A program made the translations under genes and the position numbers. Below the pieces are notes generated by a model that saw only the letters and a program-made list of their open reading frames with translations, had not been told where the DNA came from and made no database searches. A stretch of 64,000 nt of DNA from Acidimicrobiia bacterium (GTDB lineage: Bacteria; Actinomycetota; Acidimicrobiia; Spongiisociales; ZC4RG35): NCBI GenBank assembly GCA_041748855.1, contig JBGTCK010000038.1, positions 78,514-142,513 of the forward strand, given 5' to 3'. Shown piece by piece: positions 44,623 through 62,074 of the stretch (the stretch's first letter is position 1; each line of letters begins with the position of its first letter).

Positions 44623-45555
44623 ATGCTCCCCGACTTCGAGCCGATGCTGGCCACGCGGTGGAACGACCCGTTCGACGACCCGGGCTGGTGGTTCGAGGTC
44701 AAGTGGGATGGTTACCGGGCGGTGCTTTCCAACGACGGTGGGGTCCGTGCCCGCTCCCGGCGGGGAATCGACCTCCTCGAGCCGTTCCCCGAACTGAAGG
44801 GGCTGCCAATTCCTGAAGGGGTGGTCCTCGACGGCGAGATCGTCGCGTTCGACGACATCGGTCTGCCCAGCTTCGACAGGATTCAGAAACGGACCGGGTT
44901 CGGCGGCAAAGGTACCGGCGACAGGACGCCGGTCAACTTCGTTGTCTTCGATGTCCTGTTTCAGGGCGGCGAGGTTCGGATCGGCCTTCGCTATGAGGAG
45001 CGACAGGAGATCCTCGCCGGTCTCTCTCTGCCATCCCCACTTGTGGTCACCGAGGCGACGAAAGGGTCGGGCGTTGCCCTGTATGAGGCGGTGAAGGCAC
45101 AGGGCATCGAGGGAATCGTCGCCAAGCGATCCGGCTCCAAATATATGCCGGGTCGTCGCTCGGCGGACTGGCGCAAAGTCTCGGTGAAACAGAGGATGCG
45201 GGCAATAGTGGGCGGATACGCCGAAGGAGAAGGTGGGCGGTCGTCGACTTTCGGGTCGCTACTGCTTGGGTTGTGGGACGATGGGAAACTCAGGTTTATC
45301 GGGGCGGTCGGGTCAGGTTTCGATGACCGGACGCTGCGGGCCATCAAGGGGTCCCTCGACGAGCTGGAGCGAGAGTCCCGCACTTTCCAACCTTCCGTCC
45401 GTTATCCCGGTCGGTTGCACTGGGTGGAGCCAGGCATCGTCGTCAACGTCGAGTTCAAGGAGTGGACCGCGGATATGCACCTTCGCGCCCCGGTCTACAA
45501 GGGGGTCGAAATCGCCGACGTCTCCGCAATAACCTGGGAGAGCGAGGGTCCGTAG
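44623..45555 (+). CDS. ligD: ATP-dependent DNA ligase (LigD ligase-domain-only, NHEJ)
   Basis: Adenylation motif I EVKWDGYR, with later blocks EGIVAKR and LLLG. 310 aa with no polymerase or phosphoesterase domains. Confidence 0.85.
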   Translation: MLPDFEPMLATRWNDPFDDPGWWFEVKWDGYRAVLSNDGGVRARSRRGIDLLEPFPELKGLPIPEGVVLDGEIVAFDDIGLPSFDRIQKRTGFGGKGTGDRTPVNFVVFDVLFQGGEVRIGLRYEERQEILAGLSLPSPLVVTEATKGSGVALYEAVKAQGIEGIVAKRSGSKYMPGRRSADWRKVSVKQRMRAIVGGYAEGEGGRSSTFGSLLLGLWDDGKLRFIGAVGSGFDDRTLRAIKGSLDELERESRTFQPSVRYPGRLHWVEPGIVVNVEFKEWTADMHLRAPVYKGVEIADVSAITWESEGP

Positions 45556-45714
45556 GAGCCCGTTGAACAAGGCATGTCACCCATCTTGACGGCCAGGCAT
45601 CACCACTCGCTGCGTTCTCGGCCCCGCCATTCCGGACCGAGGAGTGGCGAAACCTCGGCTTGCGATTGGCGCGCCTGGCCGCCAATCTGGGCCACGGCAT
45701 CATCCAACGGACTC

Positions 45715-46497
45715 CTAGCTAGCCGCCTTCTTGGTGGCTTCGACAGACGCCTTGAGGGCTTCGAGGAGATCGACGACCTTGGTGGGCTCGGGGGAGGAGT
45801 CGACGGCCACTATCTCTTCGCCGGCGACCTTCTTGGCCGCGAGCTCTTCGATCTGCTCCCGTGACTTGTCGACGTAGGCTTCGCGCTCGAAGGGCCGGGT
45901 GAGGTTGTCGATCAGCAATGCCGCCATCTCGACTTCTTCCTTGCGGATCTCGACTTCAGCTTCGAGCTCCTCGAACTCAGCAGCCCGTATTTCGTCGGGC
46001 CAGTACATGGTCTCCATCACGATCATTCCGTCTTTGGACCGGAGGGTGGCCAGCTGCTGCTTGTCACGGATCGAGACTTTGGCAATGCCGATACGCTCCT
46101 TCTCGGCGAGGGCCTGCTCCAGGATCTGGTAGGCCTTGATTCCGGTCTTTTCCGGGGCCAGGTAGTAGGTCTTCTTGAAGAGGATGGGGTCGATCTCCTC
46201 CTCGTCGACGAACTGGATGACGTCGACCAGTTTGTTGCCGTCGGGGTTGACACCTTCCAGCTCTTCGTCTGTAAACACGACATAGCGGCCCTTTTCGAAT
46301 TCGTAACCCTTCACGATGTCGTCCCATTCGACTTCTTTGCCGTCACTCTCGGCAACCCGCTTGTATTTGATTGGGGAGTGGTCGTCCTTGCGAAGCTGTT
46401 TGAACTTGGGGGATTTCTCGTCGGTGGCGCTGTACATCCCTACCGGGATGGTGACCAACCCGAAGTTGATGGCGCCTTTCCAGATTGCTCTAGGCAT
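45715..46497 (-). CDS. ku: Ku protein (NHEJ DNA end-binding)
   Basis: MPRAIWKGAINFGLVTIPVGMYSAT canonical Ku N-terminus. The 5' extension of the tracked ORF was discarded. Confidence 0.9.
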   Translation of the reverse strand: MPRAIWKGAINFGLVTIPVGMYSATDEKSPKFKQLRKDDHSPIKYKRVAESDGKEVEWDDIVKGYEFEKGRYVVFTDEELEGVNPDGNKLVDVIQFVDEEEIDPILFKKTYYLAPEKTGIKAYQILEQALAEKERIGIAKVSIRDKQQLATLRSKDGMIVMETMYWPDEIRAAEFEELEAEVEIRKEEVEMAALLIDNLTRPFEREAYVDKSREQIEELAAKKVAGEEIVAVDSSPEPTKVVDLLEALKASVEATKKAAS

Positions 46498-46673
46498 GAT
46501 CACCATTCTAAAGCCACCCGGAGACAGAATTGACCAGAAGCACCACCGAGAACGTCCGGTTGCCGGGGATGCCCTACCCTTGGTCGTCGACATCCAGAAG
46601 AGCCAAATGACCAAGCGAGGCCGCCTGTTTCCTTCCTAGTAAGAAGGACAGAAGTCCTTGTCAGCGCCGTATG

Positions 46674-49690: not shown

Positions 49691-49750
49691 TGGTCGGGAC
49701 CCAAGGATTCGAAACGCCGAGGGGGCGCTTGAACATCTTCGGCAGCCGGT

Positions 49751-49783
49751 TTCCCCGGCAGGATTCGAACCTGCGACACCGGG
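49751..49783 (-). other. orphan tRNA 3'-end fragment (T-arm plus acceptor 3' strand), att-like
   Basis: 23 nt (49753-49775, ccccggcaggattcgaacctgcg) are identical to 46677-46699 of the tRNA-Arg-like gene. No anticodon arm, D-arm or 5' acceptor strand can be folded upstream of it. Confidence 0.55.
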
Positions 49784-49881
49784 TTTAGGAAACATCGTCT
49801 CAATTCGGGGGGTCTCAACCCACCAAAAACCCAATGGATATAGGGGTTTTCATCACTCTAACTTTGCGGCCAACTTGGTAT

Positions 49882-49922
49882 CAGTTTGAGCCTCGATCTG
49901 CTTCATTTTCTAATCTGCGACC
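49882..49922. repeat. left imperfect direct repeat (putative attL) of the 12-kb island
   Basis: cagtttgagcctcgatctgcttcattttctaatctgcgacc aligns with 62032-62074 (36 identities, 5 mismatches, 2 one-nt gaps by hand). It is preceded by the hairpin ccaacttgg. Confidence 0.6.
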
Positions 49923-50047: not shown

Positions 50048-50950
50048 GTGGACATGCATCAGAACCAGCTCGGCGTCACGGTTGGCATGGTGCGGGAACT
50101 CGTCGTAGACCAGTTCCCGCACCTCGCTGCGAAGTCAATTACGGAGTTTGAATCGGAGGGCACTGTGAACTTGATCTTCCGGATCGGCACCGAACTCGTG
50201 GCGCGGTTCCCGCTTCAGCCTGGCCGGGAGGTCGAAGAGACTCGTGAGTGGCTGTTGTCCGAGGCCGAGGCAGCGCGCGTGTTGCTAGCCAACACGTCGT
50301 TTCCTGTGCCGGAGCCGGTGGGGATCGGCGAGCCTGGAGCTGGCTACCCACTGCCTTGGTCGATGCAGACGTGGTTGCCGGGCGTCACGGCAAGCCACGA
50401 AGACCCTGCCGGGTCGGTCGCCTTCGCGGAGAATCTGGCGAGCTTTATCGAGCAAGTCAGGTCGATCGAGACAGGTGGCCGAGTCTTCTCTGGAAGAGGC
50501 CGCGGTGGCGAACTAGCCTCGCATGACGAATGGATGGAGACGTGTTTCGCCGAGAGTGAGCGGTTGCTCGAAGTCTCCAGGCTCCGCCGGGTGTGGGCAC
50601 GGTTCCGAAAGCTGCCGAGGGAGTCCACTGATGTCATGACACACGGAGACCTCGTTCCCGGAAACGTATTGGTAGGCGACGGGCGACTCGTCGGAGTTCT
50701 CGACGTCGGTGGTCTTGGCCCGGCGGACCCAGCCTTGGACCTCGTCGGCGCCTGGCATCTCCTGGACAGAGAACCCCGGCGCCTCCTACGGGTTCGGCTC
50801 GGCTGTGGCGATCTCGAATGGGAACGCGGAAAGGCGTGGGCATTTGAGCAGGCGATGGGCGCGGCCTGGTACTACCAGCACAGCAACGAGGCGATGCACC
50901 GCATGGGCCTTCGCACGCTGGAACGGATCCTCGCCGAGGAGCCAGCGTGA
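50048..50950 (+). CDS. aminoglycoside/choline-kinase-type phosphotransferase (APH family)
   Basis: Brenner motif THGDLVPGNVLV, then GVLDVGGLGPADPALDL. 300 aa. Confidence 0.8.
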   Translation: MDMHQNQLGVTVGMVRELVVDQFPHLAAKSITEFESEGTVNLIFRIGTELVARFPLQPGREVEETREWLLSEAEAARVLLANTSFPVPEPVGIGEPGAGYPLPWSMQTWLPGVTASHEDPAGSVAFAENLASFIEQVRSIETGGRVFSGRGRGGELASHDEWMETCFAESERLLEVSRLRRVWARFRKLPRESTDVMTHGDLVPGNVLVGDGRLVGVLDVGGLGPADPALDLVGAWHLLDREPRRLLRVRLGCGDLEWERGKAWAFEQAMGAAWYYQHSNEAMHRMGLRTLERILAEEPA

Positions 50951-51071
50951 CTCGGGGCATTCCCGCACGCTGGCTGAGGGGGGCACTCAGTCACTAGAAG
51001 CGTCAGTCGTCTTGCTCGATCTCTGCGAGCATTCACGGTCAGGGATGCATGGAGAACTATCTTGCTTACCT

Positions 51072-51842
51072 ATGAGACGCAGAATTCGGGCGGTGGCTCT
51101 GGCTCTGGTCATCCTTACGGCGGGGTGCGAAGCAGACCCAGCAAGTGACACGACCCCAAGTTCGAGTGAAACGACCGCAACCAGGACTCCACTAGTGATC
51201 GAACCGATCACTACCCTTGCTTCCGAACCCTTGCCGATTGATGAGGTTCCGAGCAAGTTCGTCGAGGGTGAATTGGTCGCAGTGTTCGGTTTCTCGCTCG
51301 ACGATCAGGTGACTCTTTGGGATCTTCCAACCGACGACGACTATGCAGCTCCCACTCGAATGTCGGGACTCGTCGATCGCCAAGCCACAGATTTGGTCGC
51401 TTCAGGGATAGCCCAGAGTTGGGACGGTGGGCCTCCATGGGAGCATCTCAGTTCCAGCGAACTTGACTCGTCCGGGAACCCACAATATGGCGGGTACATT
51501 TCTGAAGACAAAGTGGGCTTCTTCGGAAGGACTGAGTTAGTTACCGATGAGGTCGCTGATATGTCCAACGAGCGAGCTGACGATCTCGGCGTTGAGGTAG
51601 CTCAGTTCTTCGCAGAAGTTGAAGGGTTGGAGGTCGTGCAGATCACACGACGCGAGCACCTCGGTCGCGAACTCACATTTGACCTGGTGGGCGGTATCGA
51701 CGAAGCAACGGCAGGTTGGCGAATCCACGTCGTCATGGAAGAGGACGGCGATCTGTTCCGAGTGGTTCAGGTGGAACGCACCTTGTTTTGTTGGTTCGCC
51801 GTCGATGAATCGGGCGCATGTGTGAGTGATCCCCGGTCGTAG
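51072..51842 (+). CDS. hypothetical lipoprotein
   Basis: MRRRIRAVALALVILTAGCEAD is a signal peptide plus lipobox. The upstream part of the tracked ORF overlaps the APH gene and was discarded. Confidence 0.55.
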   Translation: MRRRIRAVALALVILTAGCEADPASDTTPSSSETTATRTPLVIEPITTLASEPLPIDEVPSKFVEGELVAVFGFSLDDQVTLWDLPTDDDYAAPTRMSGLVDRQATDLVASGIAQSWDGGPPWEHLSSSELDSSGNPQYGGYISEDKVGFFGRTELVTDEVADMSNERADDLGVEVAQFFAEVEGLEVVQITRREHLGRELTFDLVGGIDEATAGWRIHVVMEEDGDLFRVVQVERTLFCWFAVDESGACVSDPRS

Positions 51843-51932
51843 ATTGCGTGGGTCGTAACCCCAAGGCACAAAGGACCATTGATCTGTCGGATCCCCCCTG
51901 TAGCCTGGGGATGTCATCTTGGAAGGAGACGA

Positions 51933-52595
51933 GTGGCGATCCCTGGCGAACCCGATCTAGGTGTGGGTGTCTACACCTTCAGCGAAGCTGCCACGATCCT
52001 CGGTAGAGGACCCGACGCGGTTACTTCCCGACAGGTCAACTATTGGATTCGGACTGGCCTCACCCCACCGAGCATGGAGGCGCTCGACCGTGGTGTGCTG
52101 TCCTTCCACGACCTCATCAGTCTCGAAATGGTGCGCCGGTTCAGGGCGCTCGGGGTCAGCCTTCAACGGGTCCGGTGGTTCGAGGAGCGCCTTCGCCACG
52201 AATACTCTGACCGGGTGCGACCGATGGCCTACGAAGTTTTCTTCACCGACGGGGCCACGATCTGGGCAAAGGAAGCGGGTGAGGCCGACAGCAAGTTGTT
52301 GGAGATCGTCGGTCGCCGACAGGACCACTACGTCTGGTCCGACAGCGTCACGACCTTTGCCATTGAGGTCGAGTTTGAGGAACAGTCCGGCGCGGCAACC
52401 TCCTGGACCCCGGCCCCCTGGATTTCGCTCGACCCTGATGTCCAATTCGGAACTCCAGTGGTAGCAGGTAGCCGAGTCCCGGTCAGGACTATCGGAGCCA
52501 ACCTGAAGGTTGGGGACCCCGAGCAGGTGGCCGATTGGTACGGCCTCACCATCAACCAGGTGCTGGGCGTGAGGGACTACCTCGCCGTCACCTAG
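51933..52595 (+). CDS. HTH (MerR-like) plus DUF433 domain protein, putative antitoxin
   Basis: GTG start 6 nt after GGAAGGAG. N-terminal VYTFSEAATILG..VNYWIRTGL is HTH-like. C-terminal DPDVQFGTPVVAGSRVPVRTI..GDPEQVADWYGLTINQVLGVRDYL matches the DUF433 pattern. Confidence 0.7.
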   Translation: MAIPGEPDLGVGVYTFSEAATILGRGPDAVTSRQVNYWIRTGLTPPSMEALDRGVLSFHDLISLEMVRRFRALGVSLQRVRWFEERLRHEYSDRVRPMAYEVFFTDGATIWAKEAGEADSKLLEIVGRRQDHYVWSDSVTTFAIEVEFEEQSGAATSWTPAPWISLDPDVQFGTPVVAGSRVPVRTIGANLKVGDPEQVADWYGLTINQVLGVRDYLAVT

Positions 52596-52626
52596 GTACG
52601 ACCGCCGCTTCTGTCTCGACGCGCAG

Positions 52627-53022
52627 TTGAGCTACAAGGTGGCCATGGCGCTCGACACCGTCGAGCAGCCAGTAACCCACGTCACCCAACTCTGCCCCGA
52701 ATACACCACCTCCACACCGGGTCAGAACCGGGCACCAGACGAACTCATAGCCGAGCGATGTGCGGACGGTCAGATTGTGCTGGTGACCGTGGACTCCGAC
52801 TTCAGGGGCCGGTGGCTACGAACAGGTGTCCTTGCTAATCACGGTGTCGAGGTCATCGTGTTCACTAAAGACCTCGAAGGTCTAGACCAACAACACCAGG
52901 TCGTCACCCGGTGGCTGCCGAACTGGAAGTCGGAACTCGGCAAGAAGCCGTACGGGTACCGAGTGTGGGATCAGCCGGTCAACCGGTCGCTCTACAGGCG
53001 TAAGTCGAAATACCGAATCTGA
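52627..53022 (+). CDS. DUF5615 (PIN-like, Mut7-C-related) protein, putative toxin
   Basis: DELIAERCADGQIVLVTVDSDF matches the DUF5615 core. TTG is the only in-frame start, yet domain-like residues RFCLDAQL lie just upstream of it. Confidence 0.6.
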   Translation: MSYKVAMALDTVEQPVTHVTQLCPEYTTSTPGQNRAPDELIAERCADGQIVLVTVDSDFRGRWLRTGVLANHGVEVIVFTKDLEGLDQQHQVVTRWLPNWKSELGKKPYGYRVWDQPVNRSLYRRKSKYRI

Positions 53023-53621
53023 CGGTCGGGAGAGGAGTGGTGGCAGTTCATTCGGAAGTGGCGTGCGGGACGGTCAGCCACATCGCAGGAGCAGTGGCTC
53101 CTCGCGGGCATGACTGTGGGGGAGTGGTCTGATTTCCCGTTGTGTTCGACGCACTCGCTAGAAGCAATGACTGGCCGCACGGCCTCCGAAGTTCTTGCTA
53201 GTCTCCAACTTCGTCTGAGTGGTGTCACATTCACACGAGACCCGCTTCGACATGAGAACCCCCAGAAGGTCAAGTCCAAACATCTCGTTTAGGAATCGGT
53301 CGGCTGGGGGTTTTCGCTCCTCTAGTCCTCGATACTCGGTGATGTTGAGAGATGCCCCTTGCTGGAGAGACCATCGGCTCAACCCATCTTGGCAGTGGCG
53401 ACGGGGTACTACCCCTTAAGTACTCCCTCCTTTGGAGAATTCTTGCGAGCGAACGGGGCTAAAACACGCCCTTACCGGTAGTCAGAAACTCCACCCGTAT
53501 CACGGTCCCCCAACCGTGTCAGATCGTGGCCCCCGTGTTCCACCCTGATGCTGTCTTACCGCACCTATCTCCTAGCTAAGGAGTGAATAAGGGAGTTACA
53601 CACCTCGGAAGGAGGCACACC

Positions 53622-53948
53622 ATGAATAGACAAATGCCAGATCTGATCGGGCAAGCCGTACGAGCAACCGACGGCCTGCTAGCCAAGAGCGTTCGATCCG
53701 GTCGCGACACTGACCGACTAAGGCTGATATCAATTGCGGAGACTGCAGCGATCTTGAGCTTGAGCCGGTCGAGCGTCAATCGGATTCTAAATTCCGGCCG
53801 TCTCCCGTCGGTGAGGATCTTGGGTAGCCGTCGGATTCGGGTACGCGATATAGAAGTGTTTCTCGATGATCTCGCAAATGCCGAGAAGCCCTCGGATGCC
53901 GTGGACTTCCCGTCCCACTCTCCCAGTCGATCAGCGAGGAGAAAATAA
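53622..53948 (+). CDS. excisionase/MerR-superfamily helix-turn-helix protein (Xis-like)
   Basis: ATG preceded by GGAAGGAGG. LISIAETAAILSLSRSSVNRILNSGRLPSVRILGSRRIRVRDIEVFL is the excisionase-family HTH pattern. Confidence 0.65.
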   Translation: MNRQMPDLIGQAVRATDGLLAKSVRSGRDTDRLRLISIAETAAILSLSRSSVNRILNSGRLPSVRILGSRRIRVRDIEVFLDDLANAEKPSDAVDFPSHSPSRSARRK

Positions 53949-54391
53949 TGCTGAACGTAGCCAGAAAGGTATATCGATTCCTTAGTTCATGGAGGCCCAC
54001 AATCAGAATTCATAGAGTTTTCGGAAATCGTGGTTCGTTGCCAAGAAGATACGGCATGGCACTTTCGACTTCCCTCCTCGTTCCGTTCTGTTCCGTGTGC
54101 AGACATGAGAGGGACCGACATCGAGACGACCGTCGCAAGAGGTGCAAGGCTGAATCATGTTTTTGTACCGGCTGGCAACTGGCGCTCTTTTCTGTGAGAT
54201 GTACATCGTGTGGACACCCGGTCACATTTCATCGACCGGCGGGCAAATGCCGGGCGCTGGGGTGCCGTCGATGTTCGCATCTGAAATTCAATGCGGTGAC
54301 GATCGACGTTATCGCCGATCATCGAGAAGGGAGACAAATGATGAGAATGAGCAAGATGTCGCCGAAAGGCGGGTCGAAGGCTAGAGATTGA
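53948..54391 (+). CDS. Cys/His/Arg-rich hypothetical protein (multi zinc-finger-like)
   Basis: Its start shares 1 nt with the Xis-like stop (TAATG). Motifs CSVCRH..RH, CKAESCFC, CTSCGH..FH and CRALGCRRCSH. About 50 percent GC by eye. The 3' end overlaps the Type ISP gene convergently by 11 nt. Confidence 0.4.
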   Translation: MLNVARKVYRFLSSWRPTIRIHRVFGNRGSLPRRYGMALSTSLLVPFCSVCRHERDRHRDDRRKRCKAESCFCTGWQLALFSVRCTSCGHPVTFHRPAGKCRALGCRRCSHLKFNAVTIDVIADHREGRQMMRMSKMSPKGGSKARD

Positions 54392-57300: not shown

Positions 57301-59300
57301 AGAGCAATACGGTTGATATAGGCGTTGAATCGTTCGTCGTGAGACCGGAGGGCCTGGAGAACATCCCAAACAACGTCGTAATCCGAATTGCGGTCGAGTG
57401 CGGACGATGGGTCCTGTCCAACGGGTATGGCGATGGGTAGGATGATGTAACCGATCTCCTTGCCCGGTGGCTTCCGCATCACCCGACCAACTGCCTGGAC
57501 AATGTCGATCTTTGACCGACGGGGTTTCAGGAACATGACCGCGTCCAGCGCAGGTACGTCAACACCCTCGGTCAGACACTTGGCATTGGTCAGCACGCGG
57601 CACTCGCCGGGAGGTGGTGACTCTTTGAGCCAACGTATGTCTTCCCGACGGGAGGCAATCTTGTCGGTCCCATCAACATGCCGGGTCGGCACACTGATCG
57701 GTTCGTAGTCGATGTTGGAGACAGCGTTCTCTCGATTGAATTGATCGGCAACCAAGGAGAACTGTTCTGCGAAACGAGCCGATTCGGATATCCGCGACCA
57801 GAAAGCCACGGCCCGTTGCATCGGTGGCTCAGAACCAGTGAATCCCGACTTACCGCTCCTTGAACGCAGCTTGGCTAAACCTGAAAGGCAACCGACGAAC
57901 TTGGCTACGTCCGGCAGATTTAGCTCTCCATCGGAAGACAAGAGCTGTTGGAAAGATCGGGAGATCGACTCCTCCTCAACGGTCAGGATCAGCACCCGAT
58001 AGTCGGCCAACAGCCCCTGCTCGACCGCCTCCCCGAAACCGAGACGATAAAACTCGGGGCCGAAGGTCTCAGGATCGTCCATCGAAGCGACGATCACATC
58101 GTTCTCCGCCGCATCCATCTTGGCAGCAGCCCTGTACACACGCGGGGTAGCCGTCATGTAGAGACGCTTGTGGGCGGGGACGACCGAATCATCGTGAACC
58201 TTGACAAAATGACTGGCACCATCGTTGGCATCAGACGTGCCTGCCGTACGGTGGGCCTCATCCCCGACGATCAAGTCGAACACGAGACCCGAGGCTTTCT
58301 GGAGATCAGCCACAACCTGGATTGACTGGTAGGTGGAGAAGATCACCGTCATGGTCTCGGGATCTGACTCGGCAGCACCAGCCGATCGAAGTGACTCCAT
58401 ATTGGTCGTTGGGGGTATGGGCAGGTCATAAGGAGCCGCGTTGTCCCCTTTGATCTGCTGTCCTGCTGTAGCGTCTGAGCAGACTGCGAAGGGCCTGATC
58501 GGAGTCTCACACTCAACGGTCCACCCTTTGAGAGCCTGTGAGACGAGAGCGATCGACGGGGCAAGGAACAGCACTGTTCCGCCAGCGCCCACGTGATCCT
58601 CGGCGATGCGCAGAGCCGTCAGAGTCTTGCCTGTGCCGCATGCCATGATCATTTGCCCGCGGTCGGTTTCGCCGAACCCGGCCCGCACCTTCTCGGCCGC
58701 GACCACCTGATGAGGCCGAAGTTGCTTGCGAGGTGTCTCGACAAGGTCGGTGACTCTGTCAGGATCGAACTGAGACCAATCGACCGACATCGCATCCAGG
58801 TCGTCGATACCGATTCGCACCACCGGAATCTGCTGGCGCTCCAAAGCCTTCTCAGCGTGCCTCGACCAGCGATCTGTGGTGGACACGATGATCCGCTCAG
58901 AAAACGGCTCTCGTCCCGACGCGGTGAAGAATGAGTCGATGTCCGCCTTCACCAACGTGTGTTCCGGGTGATAGAACTTGCACTGAATCGCTACAAGGCC
59001 ACCGTCAACAGTCTTCGCCACCAAGTCGATACCGGTGTCCGGTTCACCCACCCGGTCCGCCCAGTCCATCCACAGCCACACATCCGTGAACCGCTCCCGG
59101 TAGGTGCGGTCAGTCCTGAAAGCCGACAGGATCAATCGCTCGAAGCGATCCCCGAGGTCACGAGAGCTAGTCGCCCGCAGGCGAAGAGTGTCCAGAACAT
59201 CGGTAGCGGATTTAACGGGAGTCGTCGTTGTCGTCGTGTTTCCATCCACGGTGGGATCGTAACGAAGGTTCCTCCACGGCCTCGACAATCCTCCGCGCAT
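54381..59300 (-). CDS. Type ISP restriction-modification enzyme (Mrr-like nuclease, SF2 helicase-like ATPase, N6-adenine MTase, C-terminal specificity domain)
   Basis: In order: a PD-(D/E)xK-like block TGIDLVAKTVDGGLVAIQCKF; Walker A MACGTGKT; DEAH box VGDEAHR; MTATPR; motif VI QAVGRVMR; SAM motif ILDPFTGTGTF; catalytic IIGNPPYSSGQ; then about a 550-aa C-terminal region. The single-polypeptide architecture resembles LlaGI/LlaBIII. Confidence 0.85.
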   Translation of the reverse strand: MRGGLSRPWRNLRYDPTVDGNTTTTTTPVKSATDVLDTLRLRATSSRDLGDRFERLILSAFRTDRTYRERFTDVWLWMDWADRVGEPDTGIDLVAKTVDGGLVAIQCKFYHPEHTLVKADIDSFFTASGREPFSERIIVSTTDRWSRHAEKALERQQIPVVRIGIDDLDAMSVDWSQFDPDRVTDLVETPRKQLRPHQVVAAEKVRAGFGETDRGQMIMACGTGKTLTALRIAEDHVGAGGTVLFLAPSIALVSQALKGWTVECETPIRPFAVCSDATAGQQIKGDNAAPYDLPIPPTTNMESLRSAGAAESDPETMTVIFSTYQSIQVVADLQKASGLVFDLIVGDEAHRTAGTSDANDGASHFVKVHDDSVVPAHKRLYMTATPRVYRAAAKMDAAENDVIVASMDDPETFGPEFYRLGFGEAVEQGLLADYRVLILTVEEESISRSFQQLLSSDGELNLPDVAKFVGCLSGLAKLRSRSGKSGFTGSEPPMQRAVAFWSRISESARFAEQFSLVADQFNRENAVSNIDYEPISVPTRHVDGTDKIASRREDIRWLKESPPPGECRVLTNAKCLTEGVDVPALDAVMFLKPRRSKIDIVQAVGRVMRKPPGKEIGYIILPIAIPVGQDPSSALDRNSDYDVVWDVLQALRSHDERFNAYINRIALRSEDLGDDPDAPIEILDGNPPESEIDEPEGEPDTEALQGRLFSHEDWVGAIYTKIVTKVGTRTYWEDWADDVVDIANRQRDRITNILDSDREVAAEFDRFVSGLRSILNDGITHQDAIAMLSQHLITSPIFDALFGSDVFEANNPVAQTMDRMVQVLEDHHLDTETRHLDDFYRSVQRRVEGIPPSDGQARQTIVKDLYGRFFKKAFPQVADSLGIVYTPVEVVDFMIRATQAALIEHFDTSLSGKGVHILDPFTGTGTFIARLLQSGYIDPTDLERKYHDEIHANEFLLLAYYIAAVNIETTYKQLTADDENDPIYDPFPGIVLTDTFELGESGEGTGVLDVFPVNNQRAERQRNLDLRVIIGNPPYSSGQDSQNDNAPNRGYPTLDASITSSYAARSTAKLKNSLYDSYIRAIRWASDRILASEHGGIVSYVTNGGYIDGNTADGLRLTLAEEFHHIYIYNLRGNQRTAGERSREEGGKVFGAGSRATVAIMLLIKDSGEVPAGGAKLYYRDIGDYLTRNRKLEILTSELTETPIHLDEIVWHRIEPNEHGDWVNQRSDSFTEHPIVHSDHEPAIFEVLTNGLKTNRDAWNWNSSRPRLEANTAKWISHYNEQVEKFSRANPDPKGTVAARARQAREVVDRDPLRLSWDAADFNRLVQGTNYSLDDASFMVGAYRPFHRRHVNAGPSLNNRTYQLPRIYPDDDTRQLSIGVSIRDTRSPFSALAVSTIADLHLWSGDTALLPMYTYDLPGADTPQGSLLEHEEPSRRHNITDYALDLYRTLDSGISKDDIFFYVYGILHSPDYREAYVADLKKTLPRIPQVESADEFWTFAGAGRELARLHTEFEEIDPWGDLEVQVAEGLDTSLEDLYCVTKMRYCNDEKTAITYNENITISNIPERVHEYMLGSRSALDWVLETNRIRKDKKSGIVNDPNDWAIEHSNPKYIFDLVGQVVSVSIRTLDIIDTLPRLNL

Positions 59301-59523
59301 GGAGCGTCATGGCCATCCTCACTGGGCCACACCGACTACCACATCACTGGCCCCCCTCGATCAGGTGAGCATGGTGCTGACCCCAATCGACGCAGCCTGG
59401 AGCAAGAGCATGTGGTCACACACCTGGAAGGACGGAGGTAGCAGATACCAGCCATGTCATCCACCACGCTCCCCATCACGGGGTCATACTCCCTTCACCT
59501 CGACAATCAATTCAGCTTTCGTA

Positions 59524-60540
59524 TCAATGACCTCTCTCTCTTAGAGCTTCGACAATCCTCACTCGAAGTTCCTCACGGACCGGAGCCAGGGCTTCTCGAT
59601 ACCGCTCTGGAGCGTCACCGGGGAGGTATTGCAGAATGGCTTGCCTGCACAGTTCCCGACCGGCCTCAGGATCAGCGAGGAGCGCATTCGCCTCCACCTT
59701 GCGCGCTCCGTAGTTGGCCAGGTAGTCCTGGACCCACTCCTCCTTGTGCTGTGGGTGAGAGGTGCTGGCTAGGTTCTTCCCCGATCCGGTGATCAGGTTC
59801 TCGATCCACACCAGGGGATGCTCAGGGTTCTCGATGTAGGTCACATCGAGTCCGAAGCGATCAACGTAGAGACTGGTCGGCTCCCAGCCGACAGCACCAG
59901 CCAAGTCCATCATGTTCGATTTCAAGTGGTCGGAGATTCGGAGACCTCCCGGATCGAAGTCACCGAAGTAGAGGAGGACCACCTTCTTGCCCTCACGCTC
60001 TTTCTCAGCGAACCGCTCCATCATTTCGGCCCTGACGTTCAGGTCTGCCCAACCTGAGACGTTGGCAATCGGAATGTGATAGCGACTACACACCTTTGTA
60101 AATAGGCTCTTGAGGTCAGTCTTCTCCACCGCCATCTGGACGTAGGTGTCCTTGTCATCCCAGAACGAGAACGGCTTGTACGACATGTGGGCGTTTTCCA
60201 CGTAGCCGATGATGCTCTCGGCCTCGGACTCGATGTCACCATCGACCCACCCGACGTTGGACCACTCCCGCTTGGAGTCAGGCGCGGTGATGTCCATCGG
60301 GAGGGTTCCATCCTTCCGGCAGTTGTTGATCGTCCTCTCCACCAAGTTGATGTCGCCCTTGTCGATGCTCCCCAGCCCTTCCAGGTAGTAGCCCCATCCC
60401 CGAGCCGACATCGAGAAATCGGTTCTCGATGCGATTTCCCGAATGTCCCTAGCGAACTGGCGCATTGCCTCGTCATGCTCATCCTGCTTGGCAGCCGATA
60501 ACGCACCACGGCCACGACGGGGGAGGATGACCTCACTCAT
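59524..60540 (-). CDS. stand-alone Topo VI-A/Spo11-like protein (5Y-CAP-like plus Toprim; Mini-A/JetD-related)
   Basis: ARGWGYYLEG (R..YY), MAVEKTD (Toprim Glu), SGWADLNVRAEM (cf. G-Y-P-D..R) and LLYFGDFDPGGLRI (DxD), in the order seen in type IIB topoisomerase A subunits. Its ATG overlaps the upstream stop by 8 nt. Confidence 0.6.
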   Translation of the reverse strand: MSEVILPRRGRGALSAAKQDEHDEAMRQFARDIREIASRTDFSMSARGWGYYLEGLGSIDKGDINLVERTINNCRKDGTLPMDITAPDSKREWSNVGWVDGDIESEAESIIGYVENAHMSYKPFSFWDDKDTYVQMAVEKTDLKSLFTKVCSRYHIPIANVSGWADLNVRAEMMERFAEKEREGKKVVLLYFGDFDPGGLRISDHLKSNMMDLAGAVGWEPTSLYVDRFGLDVTYIENPEHPLVWIENLITGSGKNLASTSHPQHKEEWVQDYLANYGARKVEANALLADPEAGRELCRQAILQYLPGDAPERYREALAPVREELRVRIVEALRERGH

Positions 60541-60817
60541 CGAGATCACCCACCTCCAGGTACTCATCAATCTGATCGAGGTCGAATCCGTACCAGGCTT
60601 CTCCCAAGATCACCGCGTCGCTGTTGTAGGGATCGACCAGCCGATAGGTGCCGTAGCCGAGAGCTTTGGGGTCGCGCCGTCTCGACTTCTGTAGCTGGAG
60701 ACCCTGACGGTCGGCCATCCTTCGGACCCGATTCTCGTAGACCTCTAATTCGGCCTCCGACATCTCATTGACATCCAGCCTCTCATCTGTGGCTCCCGCC
60801 ACTTCGACCTCCCTCAT
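60533..60817 (-). CDS. small hypothetical protein (acidic ends, basic core)
   Basis: 94 aa, with core RRMADRQGLQLQKSRRRDPKALGYGTYRLVD...GFDLDQIDEYL. It is translationally coupled to the Toprim-like gene. The family is of unknown function. Confidence 0.5.
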   Translation of the reverse strand: MREVEVAGATDERLDVNEMSEAELEVYENRVRRMADRQGLQLQKSRRRDPKALGYGTYRLVDPYNSDAVILGEAWYGFDLDQIDEYLEVGDLDE

Positions 60818-61190
60818 CGAATACTCCTGTTCTGATAGTTCTCATTGCCATGAGACACGTGTACAGGAAGTGAGGCTGGTTGTCACTCGAAGAATTCTTA
60901 TAAACCCCAGGTCAGAGCCAGAAAAAAAATCCTCTCATTCCCCCCCGACTGCTCAGAACATGGGGTCGATCGTGAAGCCCGCCCTGGGTCTAATTACCTC
61001 GCGGTTCCGCGGGAGTTTCGATGATCGAAGGGCAAGGGCCGTGCGAAAAGGTCCTTATCGGAATGTCCGTGGGCGGAGAGTAAGGGTCTTCTTCAGGTCA
61101 CTCAAGCTGTGAAGCTTCTCCCGGAGAACCTCCTTGGCGTATCAATATCTTCAGTTACTGTTACACCCCAGGTAGAGAGGTAGGGGTTGA

Positions 61191-61877
61191 TTGAAGCTTG
61201 TCGGCTATTTGAGGGTTTCGACTGCGAGTCAGGTCGATGATGGCCAAGGACTGGAGATCCAAGAGGAGACGATTCGCGGGTGGGCCAGGAGACATAACCA
61301 CCGAATTGTCCGCTGGTATCGAGACGAGGGTGTATCCGGATCCTCGGAAAGCCGCGAGGGGCTGGAGGATGCCCTCATGGCTATCAAGTTCAATGGTGCT
61401 GATGGTATCGCCGTAGCTTCCCTCGATCGGTTAGCGCGCTCCCTTACGGTTCAAGAAGCCGCTCTTCAGCAAGTCTGGACATCTGAAGGGCGTGTTTTCA
61501 GCGTTGACACTGGTGAGGTGGTGCGTGATGATCCCGATGATCCAGTTCGCACATTCGTCAGACATATTCTCGGCGCAGTCTCACAACTGGAAGCTGCAAT
61601 GATCGCCCGTCGGCTAAGACGGGGTCGGACACATAAGGCAGCATCAGGTGGCTACGCGCACGGTGCGCCTCCATTCGGCTACCGGGCTGAGGGTGGACGG
61701 CTGAATACCTTCCCGACCGAGCAAAACGTGATTCAGCTAATGATGGAAATGCGAGAGGCAGGTTTGAGTTTCAGGCGTATCGCCGAGCAGCTGAATAGTG
61801 ACGGCTTCGTTGCTAAACGTGGTGGTCGATGGCATCCCCAATCCGTAGCCAGAGTCATCGCAAGGGACGCGGAGTGA
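61191..61877 (+). CDS. small serine recombinase (resolvase/invertase family)
   Basis: MKLVGYLRVSTASQ (catalytic Ser), WYRDEGVSGS, SLDRLARS and a C-terminal HTH GLSFRRIAEQLN. TTG start. Confidence 0.9.
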   Translation: MKLVGYLRVSTASQVDDGQGLEIQEETIRGWARRHNHRIVRWYRDEGVSGSSESREGLEDALMAIKFNGADGIAVASLDRLARSLTVQEAALQQVWTSEGRVFSVDTGEVVRDDPDDPVRTFVRHILGAVSQLEAAMIARRLRRGRTHKAASGGYAHGAPPFGYRAEGGRLNTFPTEQNVIQLMMEMREAGLSFRRIAEQLNSDGFVAKRGGRWHPQSVARVIARDAE

Positions 61878-62031: not shown

Positions 62032-62074
62032 AGGTTTGAGCCTTGATTTGATTCATTTTTTAATCTTCGAACCC
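62032..62074. repeat. right imperfect direct repeat (putative attR) of the 12-kb island
   Basis: caggtttgagccttgatttgattcattttttaatcttcgaacc is the partner of 49882-49922. It overlaps the hairpin cctggcaaccagg. Confidence 0.6.

Follow-up and report, generated by a model that had tools for sequence, protein, structure and literature searches.

The window analysed here, a 64-kb stretch of a contig from an Acidimicrobiia bacterium, carries a gene for a 338-residue protein that is almost certainly an intact Topo mini-A (Mini-A), i.e., a stand-alone protein resembling the type IIB topoisomerase A subunit and consisting of a truncated 5Y-CAP part and a Toprim domain. Topo mini-A was described by Takahashi et al. 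(NAR Genom Bioinform 2(1):lqz021, Dec 2019, PMC7671362) and in "Viruses of Asgard archaea" (bioRxiv 10.1101/2021.07.29.453957). On the minus strand, the gene follows one for a 94-residue basic protein and precedes a gene for a 1639-residue Type ISP restriction-modification (R-M) enzyme. A preliminary description of the locus proposed that the first two genes form a module that could assist the Type ISP enzyme. The present analysis favours another reading: the Mini-A gene is likely to be a backbone gene of an integrated element of approximately 12 kb, in which the R-M gene is cargo.

Identification of the 338-Residue Protein

The protein is assigned to Topo mini-A because of a match in PHROGs, a set of invariant residues, an AlphaFold model and its Foldseek neighbours, a tblastn match to an Asgard protein, an hhalign alignment with a phage protein, and a comparison of motifs with Asgard proteins and Topo VIII. 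In PHROGs, phrog_6247 ("DNA topoisomerase") was matched over the full length of the protein (E = 7e-53). A tblastn search of plasmids returned the "Topo mini-A" BDI55083.1 of the Asgard mobile genetic element (MGE) 10H_0, with 39% identity, an E value of 9e-72 and 96% coverage. When phages were searched with tblastn, Cellulophaga phage proteins were found with 42% identity, and distant homologues with 24–25% identity came from Chi-like Salmonella phages, Xylella/Xanthomonas phages and HCIV-1. The RefSeq label of the phage homologues is also "DNA topoisomerase". A family profile was made from a 40-sequence alignment of homologues and aligned using hhalign with gp28 of Salmonella phage BP12C, which bears the published Mini-A signature SWELDAL. 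The alignment reached 97.6% probability (E = 4.5e-12, 250 columns), with R47/Y51, E139, the DxD motif and the C-terminal box all in register.

The family is large: clustering at 90% identity gives at least 926 homologous clusters, and 3274 representatives remain at 50% identity (E ≤ 1e-3). Its members come from many bacterial and archaeal phyla and were found in phages, viral contigs, plasmids and integrase-bearing loci. A scan of genome contigs with the single 338-residue protein gave no matches; the alignment-based scan succeeded. One homologue of 711 residues (P0189) contains a LAGLIDADG_3 domain and is intein-like. Inteins are frequent in proteins of replication and DNA metabolism.

The AlphaFold (AF2) model, computed on the 40-sequence alignment, has a mean predicted local distance difference test score (pLDDT) of 93.1 and a predicted template modelling score (pTM) of 0.88. 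A helical N-terminal domain is followed by alternating strands and helices, as expected for a Toprim fold. Foldseek placed two chains of Topo VI-A (1d3y_B and 1d3y_A) at the top of the PDB matches, with a probability of 0.98 and E values of 4e-3 to 6e-3; the next matches had probabilities of at most 0.54 and were unrelated. The template modelling scores (TM-scores) to 1d3y are low (0.31–0.39 over 326–335 columns), possibly owing to a different orientation of the two domains. Foldseek against BFVD gave nothing specific for the model. In length, the protein (338 residues) is close to the approximately 300 residues expected of a Mini-A, and the N-terminal part of 5Y-CAP is lacking.

Sequence searches of general databases were less productive. 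Neither Pfam nor NCBIfam has a family for the protein, only JetD_C, DUF2399 and TIGR02679 being matched below threshold in the DxD region. Pfam TP6A_N was not matched at E ≤ 1, and searches of PDB sequences with the protein and with the 40-sequence profile returned only spurious matches to designed repeat proteins. A type IIB topoisomerase A-like fold and a relationship to Mini-A proteins had already been suggested in the preliminary description. Both are borne out by PHROGs, the model, Foldseek, tblastn and hhalign, with Mini-A proteins as the closest relatives. The absence of a B-subunit gene nearby, also noted there, extends to the whole window, in which six Topo VIII-like B halves used as tblastn queries detected no GHKL or Topo VIII-B-like coding sequence (best E = 0.45).

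The same description had brought up JetD as a relative; here the resemblance to JetD stays below threshold and is confined to the DxD region. As an alternative, the 338-residue protein would be a JetD-like or other Toprim nuclease that acts alone in defence against plasmids or phages. It draws on a best PADLOC JetD match with E = 1.1e-3 and 16 bits and on Pfam matches to JetD_C/DUF2399 with E values of 0.04–0.08, all of which stem solely from the region of D194-F-D196. These matches cover approximately 25–40 residues around the DxD motif and lie below the Pfam cut-offs (JetD_C, 13.6 bits versus 22); the PADLOC JetD matches reach at most 16 bits over 22–41 residues. Moreover, Mini-A and Topo VI-A are what the protein resembles over its full length, the neighbours of the family are replication and integration genes, and no SMC-like or JetABC-like gene is present among the Pfam-scanned open reading frames (ORFs) of 49.9–62.1 kb. 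A JetD-like nuclease is the least probable of the explanations considered and hardly credible.

Catalytic Residues and the T2BI Box

Across the 40 aligned sequences, R47, G48, W49, Y51, E54, E139, D194, D196, G199, K281 and E283 are invariant, and the window protein keeps the residue at every invariant column. R47 and Y51 lie within helix 46–55 of the model. In the alignments, their counterparts are the R and second Y in the phage Mini-A segment TTRQVYYQL and in the Topo VIII segment SQRQLYY. Y51 is the predicted catalytic tyrosine. The preliminary description had sought this residue in an R-x-x-x-Y-Y segment; the segment is right, and the tyrosine is now taken to be the first Y, Y51, which is invariant, position 52 being variable. 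The Toprim landmarks that it named include E139, D194 and D196, all of them invariant. In the model, E139 follows the first strand (132–138) and the DxD motif follows the third (186–192). In phage Mini-A and Topo VIII alike, E139 is matched by IEKE. D194-F-D196, predicted to bind metal, aligns with GDHDPSG of phage Mini-A. All of the motifs quoted earlier (ARGWGYYLEG, VEK, SGWADLNVR, YFGDFDPGG and QKSRRRDPKALGYGTY) are present in the translations.

The C-terminal "T2BI" box, defined by Takahashi et al. (PMC7671362), corresponds to K281-VEANAL287. In the alignments, it falls opposite SWELDAL in phage Mini-A and RVELNSM in Topo VIII. The signature xWELDAL is not found in the window protein, where KVEANAL stands instead and V and N replace W and D, respectively. 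The Asgard "Topo mini-A" shares this variant (RKVEANAI), and KVEANAL is therefore read as a difference between sub-clades and as no bar to Mini-A membership.

A Test for Linkage with the Type ISP Gene

The Type ISP enzyme is encoded at full length. It contains the domains Mrr_cat_2, ResIII/Helicase_C, ISP_coupler, N6_Mtase-like and Type_ISP_C, and it matches PADLOC REase_MTase_IIG end to end (5–1639/1646). Linkage was scanned by tblastn and by profile hidden Markov models (HMMs) over six-frame ORFs. The Mini-A loci comprised 79 genomic loci, 6 viral contigs and the regions around the four metagenomic relatives nearest to the window protein. Relatives of the Type ISP gene (39–62% identity) were represented by 39 loci, approximately 21 of which had at least 1.9 kb of upstream sequence. 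Of the 8 loci with homologues of the small protein, 5 were scanned with HMMs, and 3 that were fetched later were judged by their gene tables.

The Mini-A HMM matched every Mini-A locus. It had no match in the 39 Type ISP loci or in the 5 small-protein loci that were scanned, nor did a Mini-A gene appear in the gene tables of the 3 others. By tblastn and HMM, the small protein was absent from all 88 other Mini-A loci and from all 39 Type ISP loci. A Type ISP gene adjoined the Mini-A gene in 0/88 other Mini-A loci; the tblastn matches to Type ISP in these loci were short, confined to helicase motifs, and had E values of 8e-6 or weaker. PADLOC has no Mini-A-like component of Type ISP systems. The sole second copy of the arrangement is on a 7.4-kb metagenomic contig (L001), whose sequence is identical to the window.

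These counts bear on the proposal that the small and the 338-residue proteins jointly assist the Type ISP enzyme as an accessory module, be it a second nuclease, an anti-plasmid part or a helper that deals with DNA stalled by, or in collision with, the translocating enzyme. The shared strand, the short distance with no terminator-like motif in between, the identical arrangement in L001 and the tendency of defence genes to cluster on mobile elements would all fit such a module. However, neither component accompanies any of the Type ISP relatives, no other Mini-A locus has the two genes side by side, and in the closest Mini-A relative (65% identity) the gene downstream is that for Prim-Pol. L001, being the same sequence as the window, offers no independent conservation. 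Furthermore, characterised Type ISP enzymes, e.g., LlaGI and LlaBIII, are single-polypeptide systems. An accessory module is therefore considered very unlikely, and neither the partnership with the Type ISP enzyme nor the conserved two-gene module of the preliminary description is retained.

There is, with high probability, no conserved link between Mini-A and Type ISP. The adjacency is incidental: the R-M gene fills a slot that is held by Prim-Pol, DUF3631 or PolA in relatives. A lineage-specific recruitment, in which Mini-A and a coupled small partner would work with the Type ISP enzyme on DNA ends or topological stress caused by its translocation, or would guard the element against self R-M, retains a chance that is slighter still, because all of the genes are on one strand, a terminator motif was not seen and the arrangement occurs in this genome only. 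If true, it would be the first functional context for a Mini-A. As a one-off, the R-M adjacency gives no clue to the role of Mini-A.

Neighbourhoods of Mini-A Relatives

The context of the relatives points to replication and integration, as the literature already suspected, with Mini-A at the front of replication modules. In the closest relative (P0002, 65% identity), the order of genes is serine recombinase, Mini-A, Prim-Pol and DUF3631. An integrase, Mini-A and phage head genes are found in P0003 (56%), and Mini-A, RusA, DNA_pol_A and AAA_25 in P0008 (55%). In P0009 (56%), an integrase precedes Mini-A and Prim-Pol, the stop of the former overlapping the start of the latter. Of the 79 genomic loci, 24 have a tyrosine integrase within 8 kb, and this integrase forms the one recurrent family in the clustering of neighbours; smaller clusters consist of primases, helicases and terminase. 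Among the 300 nearest neighbours, Pfam identified AAA_25, Toprim_3, DUF3987, DUF3631, DUF927, Prim-Pol, the DnaG zinc ribbon, superfamily 2 (SF2) helicases, PolA and integrases. R-M-type genes in this set are limited to one HsdM and one phage-type N6_N4 methylase, and the PADLOC matches on downstream neighbours trace to a few generic helicase or methylase domains. A survey of homologue neighbourhoods for R-M or defence genes had been suggested in the preliminary description; integrases and replication genes were found instead, an outcome that had been named beforehand as refuting the proposal.

In most loci, a conserved small gene upstream of Mini-A is absent. Homologues of the window recombinase of similar length are present in two other Mini-A loci (L055 and L048). 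The large serine recombinases of L081 and L136 do not match the window recombinase. The idea that the latter is truncated was rejected because these short homologues exist.

The Small Basic Protein

The 94-residue protein belongs to a family of at least 1946 clusters, whose members have 70–100 residues and for which Pfam has no entry. The core of the family is strongly basic (ENRxRRMAxRQGLxLxKSRRRDPRA), and the single listed member that carries a name comes from the actinobacterium Nostocoides japonicum. No significant match was found in Pfam, PHROGs, NCBIfam, PADLOC or the PDB sequences. The AF2 model (pLDDT 72) shows a helix, three short strands and a helix, and with this model Foldseek found no significant fold neighbour. 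The top match, a methyl-CpG-binding domain, had a probability of just 0.13 and was rejected.

The surroundings of the small protein's homologues are element-like, featuring serine recombinases, HTH_17 and AAA_25 genes, and the homologues are often coupled to a downstream gene that varies (72, 120, 533 or 63 residues, HNH, HTH_17). In L134 (1630–2137), the homologue overlaps the gene for a 95-residue HNH nuclease, again by 8 nucleotides. Start/stop overlaps join it to the gene for a 120-residue protein in L084 (6001–6575) and to that for a 63-residue protein in L136 (2741–3159).

The small protein could be a lineage-specific partner of Mini-A, either as a substitute for the B subunit or as a targeting or inhibitory subunit, so that both would form a two-protein DNA-cleaving unit or a toxin–antitoxin-like pair. 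The overlap with the Mini-A gene, which suggests coupled translation, would agree with this, and the overlaps with the HNH gene and the other genes fit a small protein that travels with variable effectors. Yet the two genes do not co-occur (0/88 Mini-A loci have the small protein and 0/8 small-protein loci have Mini-A), the downstream genes are heterogeneous, most Mini-A genes have no conserved small gene upstream, and the small protein has no detectable fold relative. Such a partnership is thus improbable. The 94-residue protein is probably an independent, widespread small element gene product with a DNA-binding or regulatory role, and its translational coupling to a Mini-A gene happens only here and is not a conserved pairing.

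The Locus and the Integrated Element

The features of the locus, compiled from the ORF list and the raw sequence, are given in Table 1. The overlap of the two ORFs, their distance to the co-oriented Type ISP gene and the serine recombinase beside them agree with the preliminary description. Both ORFs are real genes rather than chance ORFs: each belongs to a large homologous family. The ATG start of the 338-residue protein is consistent with the N-termini of homologues. The NCBI call for this gene has a 347-residue product, the start of which is presumably near an upstream TTG that gives a 348-residue variant in the ORF list.

Table 1. Coordinates in the window of the Mini-A gene, its functional codons and surrounding features.
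Feature	Position	Strand	Remarks
Small basic protein gene, 94 residues	60533-60817	-	AGGAG Shine-Dalgarno sequence 8 nucleotides before ATG
Topo mini-A gene, 338 residues	59524-60540	-	ATG inside ATGAGTGA; GGAGGTG approximately 10-12 nucleotides before start
8-nucleotide overlap ATGAGTGA	60533-60540	-	Stop of small gene and start of Mini-A gene; read from sequence
Y51 codon, predicted catalytic tyrosine (R47-G-W-G-Y51)	60388-60390	-	R47 and Y51 invariant in 40 homologues
E139 codon, Toprim glutamate (VEK)	60124-60126	-	Invariant
D194-F-D196 codons, Toprim DxD	59953-59961	-	D194 and D196 invariant
C-terminal T2BI box K281-VEANAL287	59680-59700	-	K281 and E283 invariant
Spacer, Mini-A gene to Type ISP gene, 223 nucleotides	59301-59523	-	
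Type ISP R-M gene, 1639 residues	54381-59300	-	Pfam Type_ISP_C 5e-86, Mrr_cat_2, ISP_coupler, ResIII; PADLOC REase_MTase_IIG 1903 bits
Short serine recombinase, 228 residues	61191-61877	+	Divergent from small gene; Resolvase 3e-28 and partial Recombinase domain
HTH_17 (excisionase/AlpA-like) gene and 147-residue Cys-rich ORF	53583-54391	+	Convergent with Type ISP gene
Left direct-repeat copy, possible island end	49884-49920		tRNA-3'-end-like remnants just upstream
Right direct-repeat copy	62034-62070		Approximately 160 nucleotides beyond recombinase gene

The recombinase-bearing region is bracketed by a 37-nucleotide imperfect direct repeat (86% identity), the copies of which are 12150 nucleotides apart. 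The recombinase gene and the flanking repeat fit the recombinase-bearing island of the preliminary description. We tentatively regard the region of approximately 49.9–62.1 kb as an integrated element of approximately 12 kb. Between the repeats lie an APH-like kinase gene, a MerR/DUF433 and PIN-like pair, the HTH_17 gene and the Cys-rich ORF, the Type ISP gene, the Mini-A gene, the small gene and the recombinase gene. The setting is that expected for a Mini-A in a mobile element, with a serine recombinase, HTH_17, a toxin–antitoxin-like pair and flanking direct repeats. Tentatively, the recombinase, the small protein, Mini-A and HTH_17 would constitute the backbone of the element, and the R-M gene and the toxin–antitoxin-like pair its cargo.

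Several further observations were made in and around the element. Left of the repeat, two GGTTCGAATCC-like remnants of tRNA T-arms are found on the minus strand at 49700–49790 (near 49.75 kb), where ARAGORN and Rfam called no tRNA. At 50048–51842 (+), an APH-like kinase ORF (300 residues, 50048–50950) and a 377-residue ORF without a family (50709–51842) overlap by approximately 240 nucleotides in different frames; the start of one or the other has probably been placed wrongly. A MerR_1/DUF433 protein (238 residues) followed by a DUF5615/PIN_10-like protein (131 residues) is encoded at 51879–53022 (+), and this pair is probably toxin–antitoxin-like. The stop of the HTH_17 gene overlaps the start of the 147-residue Cys-rich ORF, for which there is no family match and whose 3' end overlaps that of the Type ISP gene by 11 nucleotides. 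Outside the island, at 44623–46614, the gene for an ATP-dependent LigD-like ligase (310 residues) adjoins that for Ku (299 residues); they are a chromosomal non-homologous end-joining pair. A GNAT gene lies outside the repeats on the opposite side from Ku and ligase.

A number of points weigh against reading Mini-A as a backbone gene with the R-M gene as cargo. The 8-nucleotide overlap suggests coupled expression of the small protein and Mini-A. All three genes lie on the same strand with no terminator-like motif in the 223-nucleotide gap, so that Mini-A and the Type ISP gene may be co-transcribed; the scan (59100–61300), which found neither terminator-like nor sigma-70-like motifs in the spacer, is uninformative for a genome of this type. 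Most neighbours of the homologues are unannotated, so that the neighbourhood census draws on the minority with annotation. The island boundaries depend on one imperfect repeat. Pfam recognised no primase, helicase or polymerase among the island ORFs. Finally, no biochemical activity has been reported for any Mini-A (PMC7671362; bioRxiv 10.1101/2021.07.29.453957).

The element may be non-autonomous, because the Prim-Pol slot holds the Type ISP gene and no replication gene is recognisable in the island. The same two features could also fit a Mini-A gene that is an inactive relic of a decayed element. This is unlikely, given the full-length ORF, the retention of all invariant residues, the confident model, and the intact ribosome-binding site and start. 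The reading of Mini-A as a backbone gene, with the R-M gene as cargo, is still the one we consider likely.

Proposed Function

We infer both a catalytic mechanism and a role in replication from homology and neighbourhood. A Mini-A dimer would break and rejoin DNA via a 5'-phosphotyrosyl intermediate, using Y51 and Mg2+ held by E139, D194 and D196. Without an ATPase gate, ATP-driven strand passage would not be expected. The protein would act on the DNA of the element itself, and its likeliest roles would be origin nicking and replication initiation, or relaxing or unlinking of DNA alongside the primase or polymerase that follows in relatives. The chances of a replication-associated role are put at about even. 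A replication-initiator role was proposed for the Mini-A of skuldviruses (bioRxiv 10.1101/2021.07.29.453957), and a 2026 preprint restates this role as a hypothesis.

The family comprises thousands of clusters from bacteria, archaea and viruses with intact topoisomerase-type catalytic residues. Its role matters for the replication of mobile elements and for the question of where type IIB topoisomerases and Spo11 came from.

GHKL-Bearing Members of the Clade

Among the best 150 representatives of the family, several are fusions of 730–890 residues with an N-terminal HATPase_c domain. The fused or split candidates are P0153, P0155, P0160, P0205, P0233 and P0299. A Topo VIII-like B half is fused to or directly upstream of Mini-A in 12/94 family loci (approximately 13%), namely L015, L018, L054, L055, L062-L064, L067-L069, L072 and L075. 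The N-terminal half of P0153 has 37–39% identity to the Topo VIII B halves of pPPM1a, pMPPla107 and pBASL58, and its C-terminal half matches Mini-A only. The latter carries the RGWxY and RK[VC]EANAL motifs of the window clade and lacks the YYxxRP and RVELNxM motifs of Topo VIII.

This suggests that the Mini-A clade of the window exists in stand-alone, split and fused forms. The B-like half may be the "Mini-B" asked for by Takahashi et al. (PMC7671362), or it may belong to an undescribed Topo VIII-like subfamily. The GHKL-bearing members bear on the existence of "Mini-B" and on an origin of Mini-A by loss of the B subunit. As a by-product, this observation is more useful than the R-M adjacency.

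Comparison with Known Systems

The 338-residue protein is not JetD, not Topo VIII, and not Topo VI-A with a partner. JetD is distantly related to Topo VI-A, and the Toprim DxD metal site is common to JetD and the window protein. However, the JetD of Wadjet differs in length and in its N-terminal region, and jetABC is missing here. Topo VI-A and Spo11 are closer in that they share the two-domain fold, with 1d3y as the best PDB match, and the catalytic residues in the same order. Unlike them, the window protein has no match to these proteins in sequence searches, no B subunit and no full N-terminal 5Y-CAP.

Topo VIII resembles the window clade in its T2BI box, RVELNAM being near to [RK]VE[LA]NA[LM]. 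The window protein has no GHKL ATPase/transducer, fused or adjoining, and its Y51 is followed by x-L-E, with no R-P three residues on as in RxxYYxxRP of Topo VIII. When the family profile was aligned with Topo VIII of pPPM1a by hhalign, the probability was 0.14, in a test whose sensitivity is low with a single-sequence template.

The LlaGI/LlaBIII-type Type ISP enzymes compare with the neighbouring gene only, which shares with them the Mrr nuclease, SF2 motor, coupler, methylase and Type_ISP_C. This neighbour is outside the Mini-A family and without conserved linkage to it.

The gene adds a member to the already described, functionally unsolved Topo mini-A family. It departs from the published description in the T2BI box (KVEANAL versus xWELDAL) and in the residue preceding the catalytic tyrosine, which is small (G/A/C/S) instead of Y/F. 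It also differs in its location, which is a serine-recombinase island by an R-M gene rather than a recognisable virus, and in the GHKL partner that some members of its clade possess. With Topo mini-A it shares a length of approximately 300–340 residues, the truncated 5Y-CAP with R-x3-Y, the Toprim E and DxDxxG, the T2BI box, the lack of a B subunit and the residence in mobile elements.

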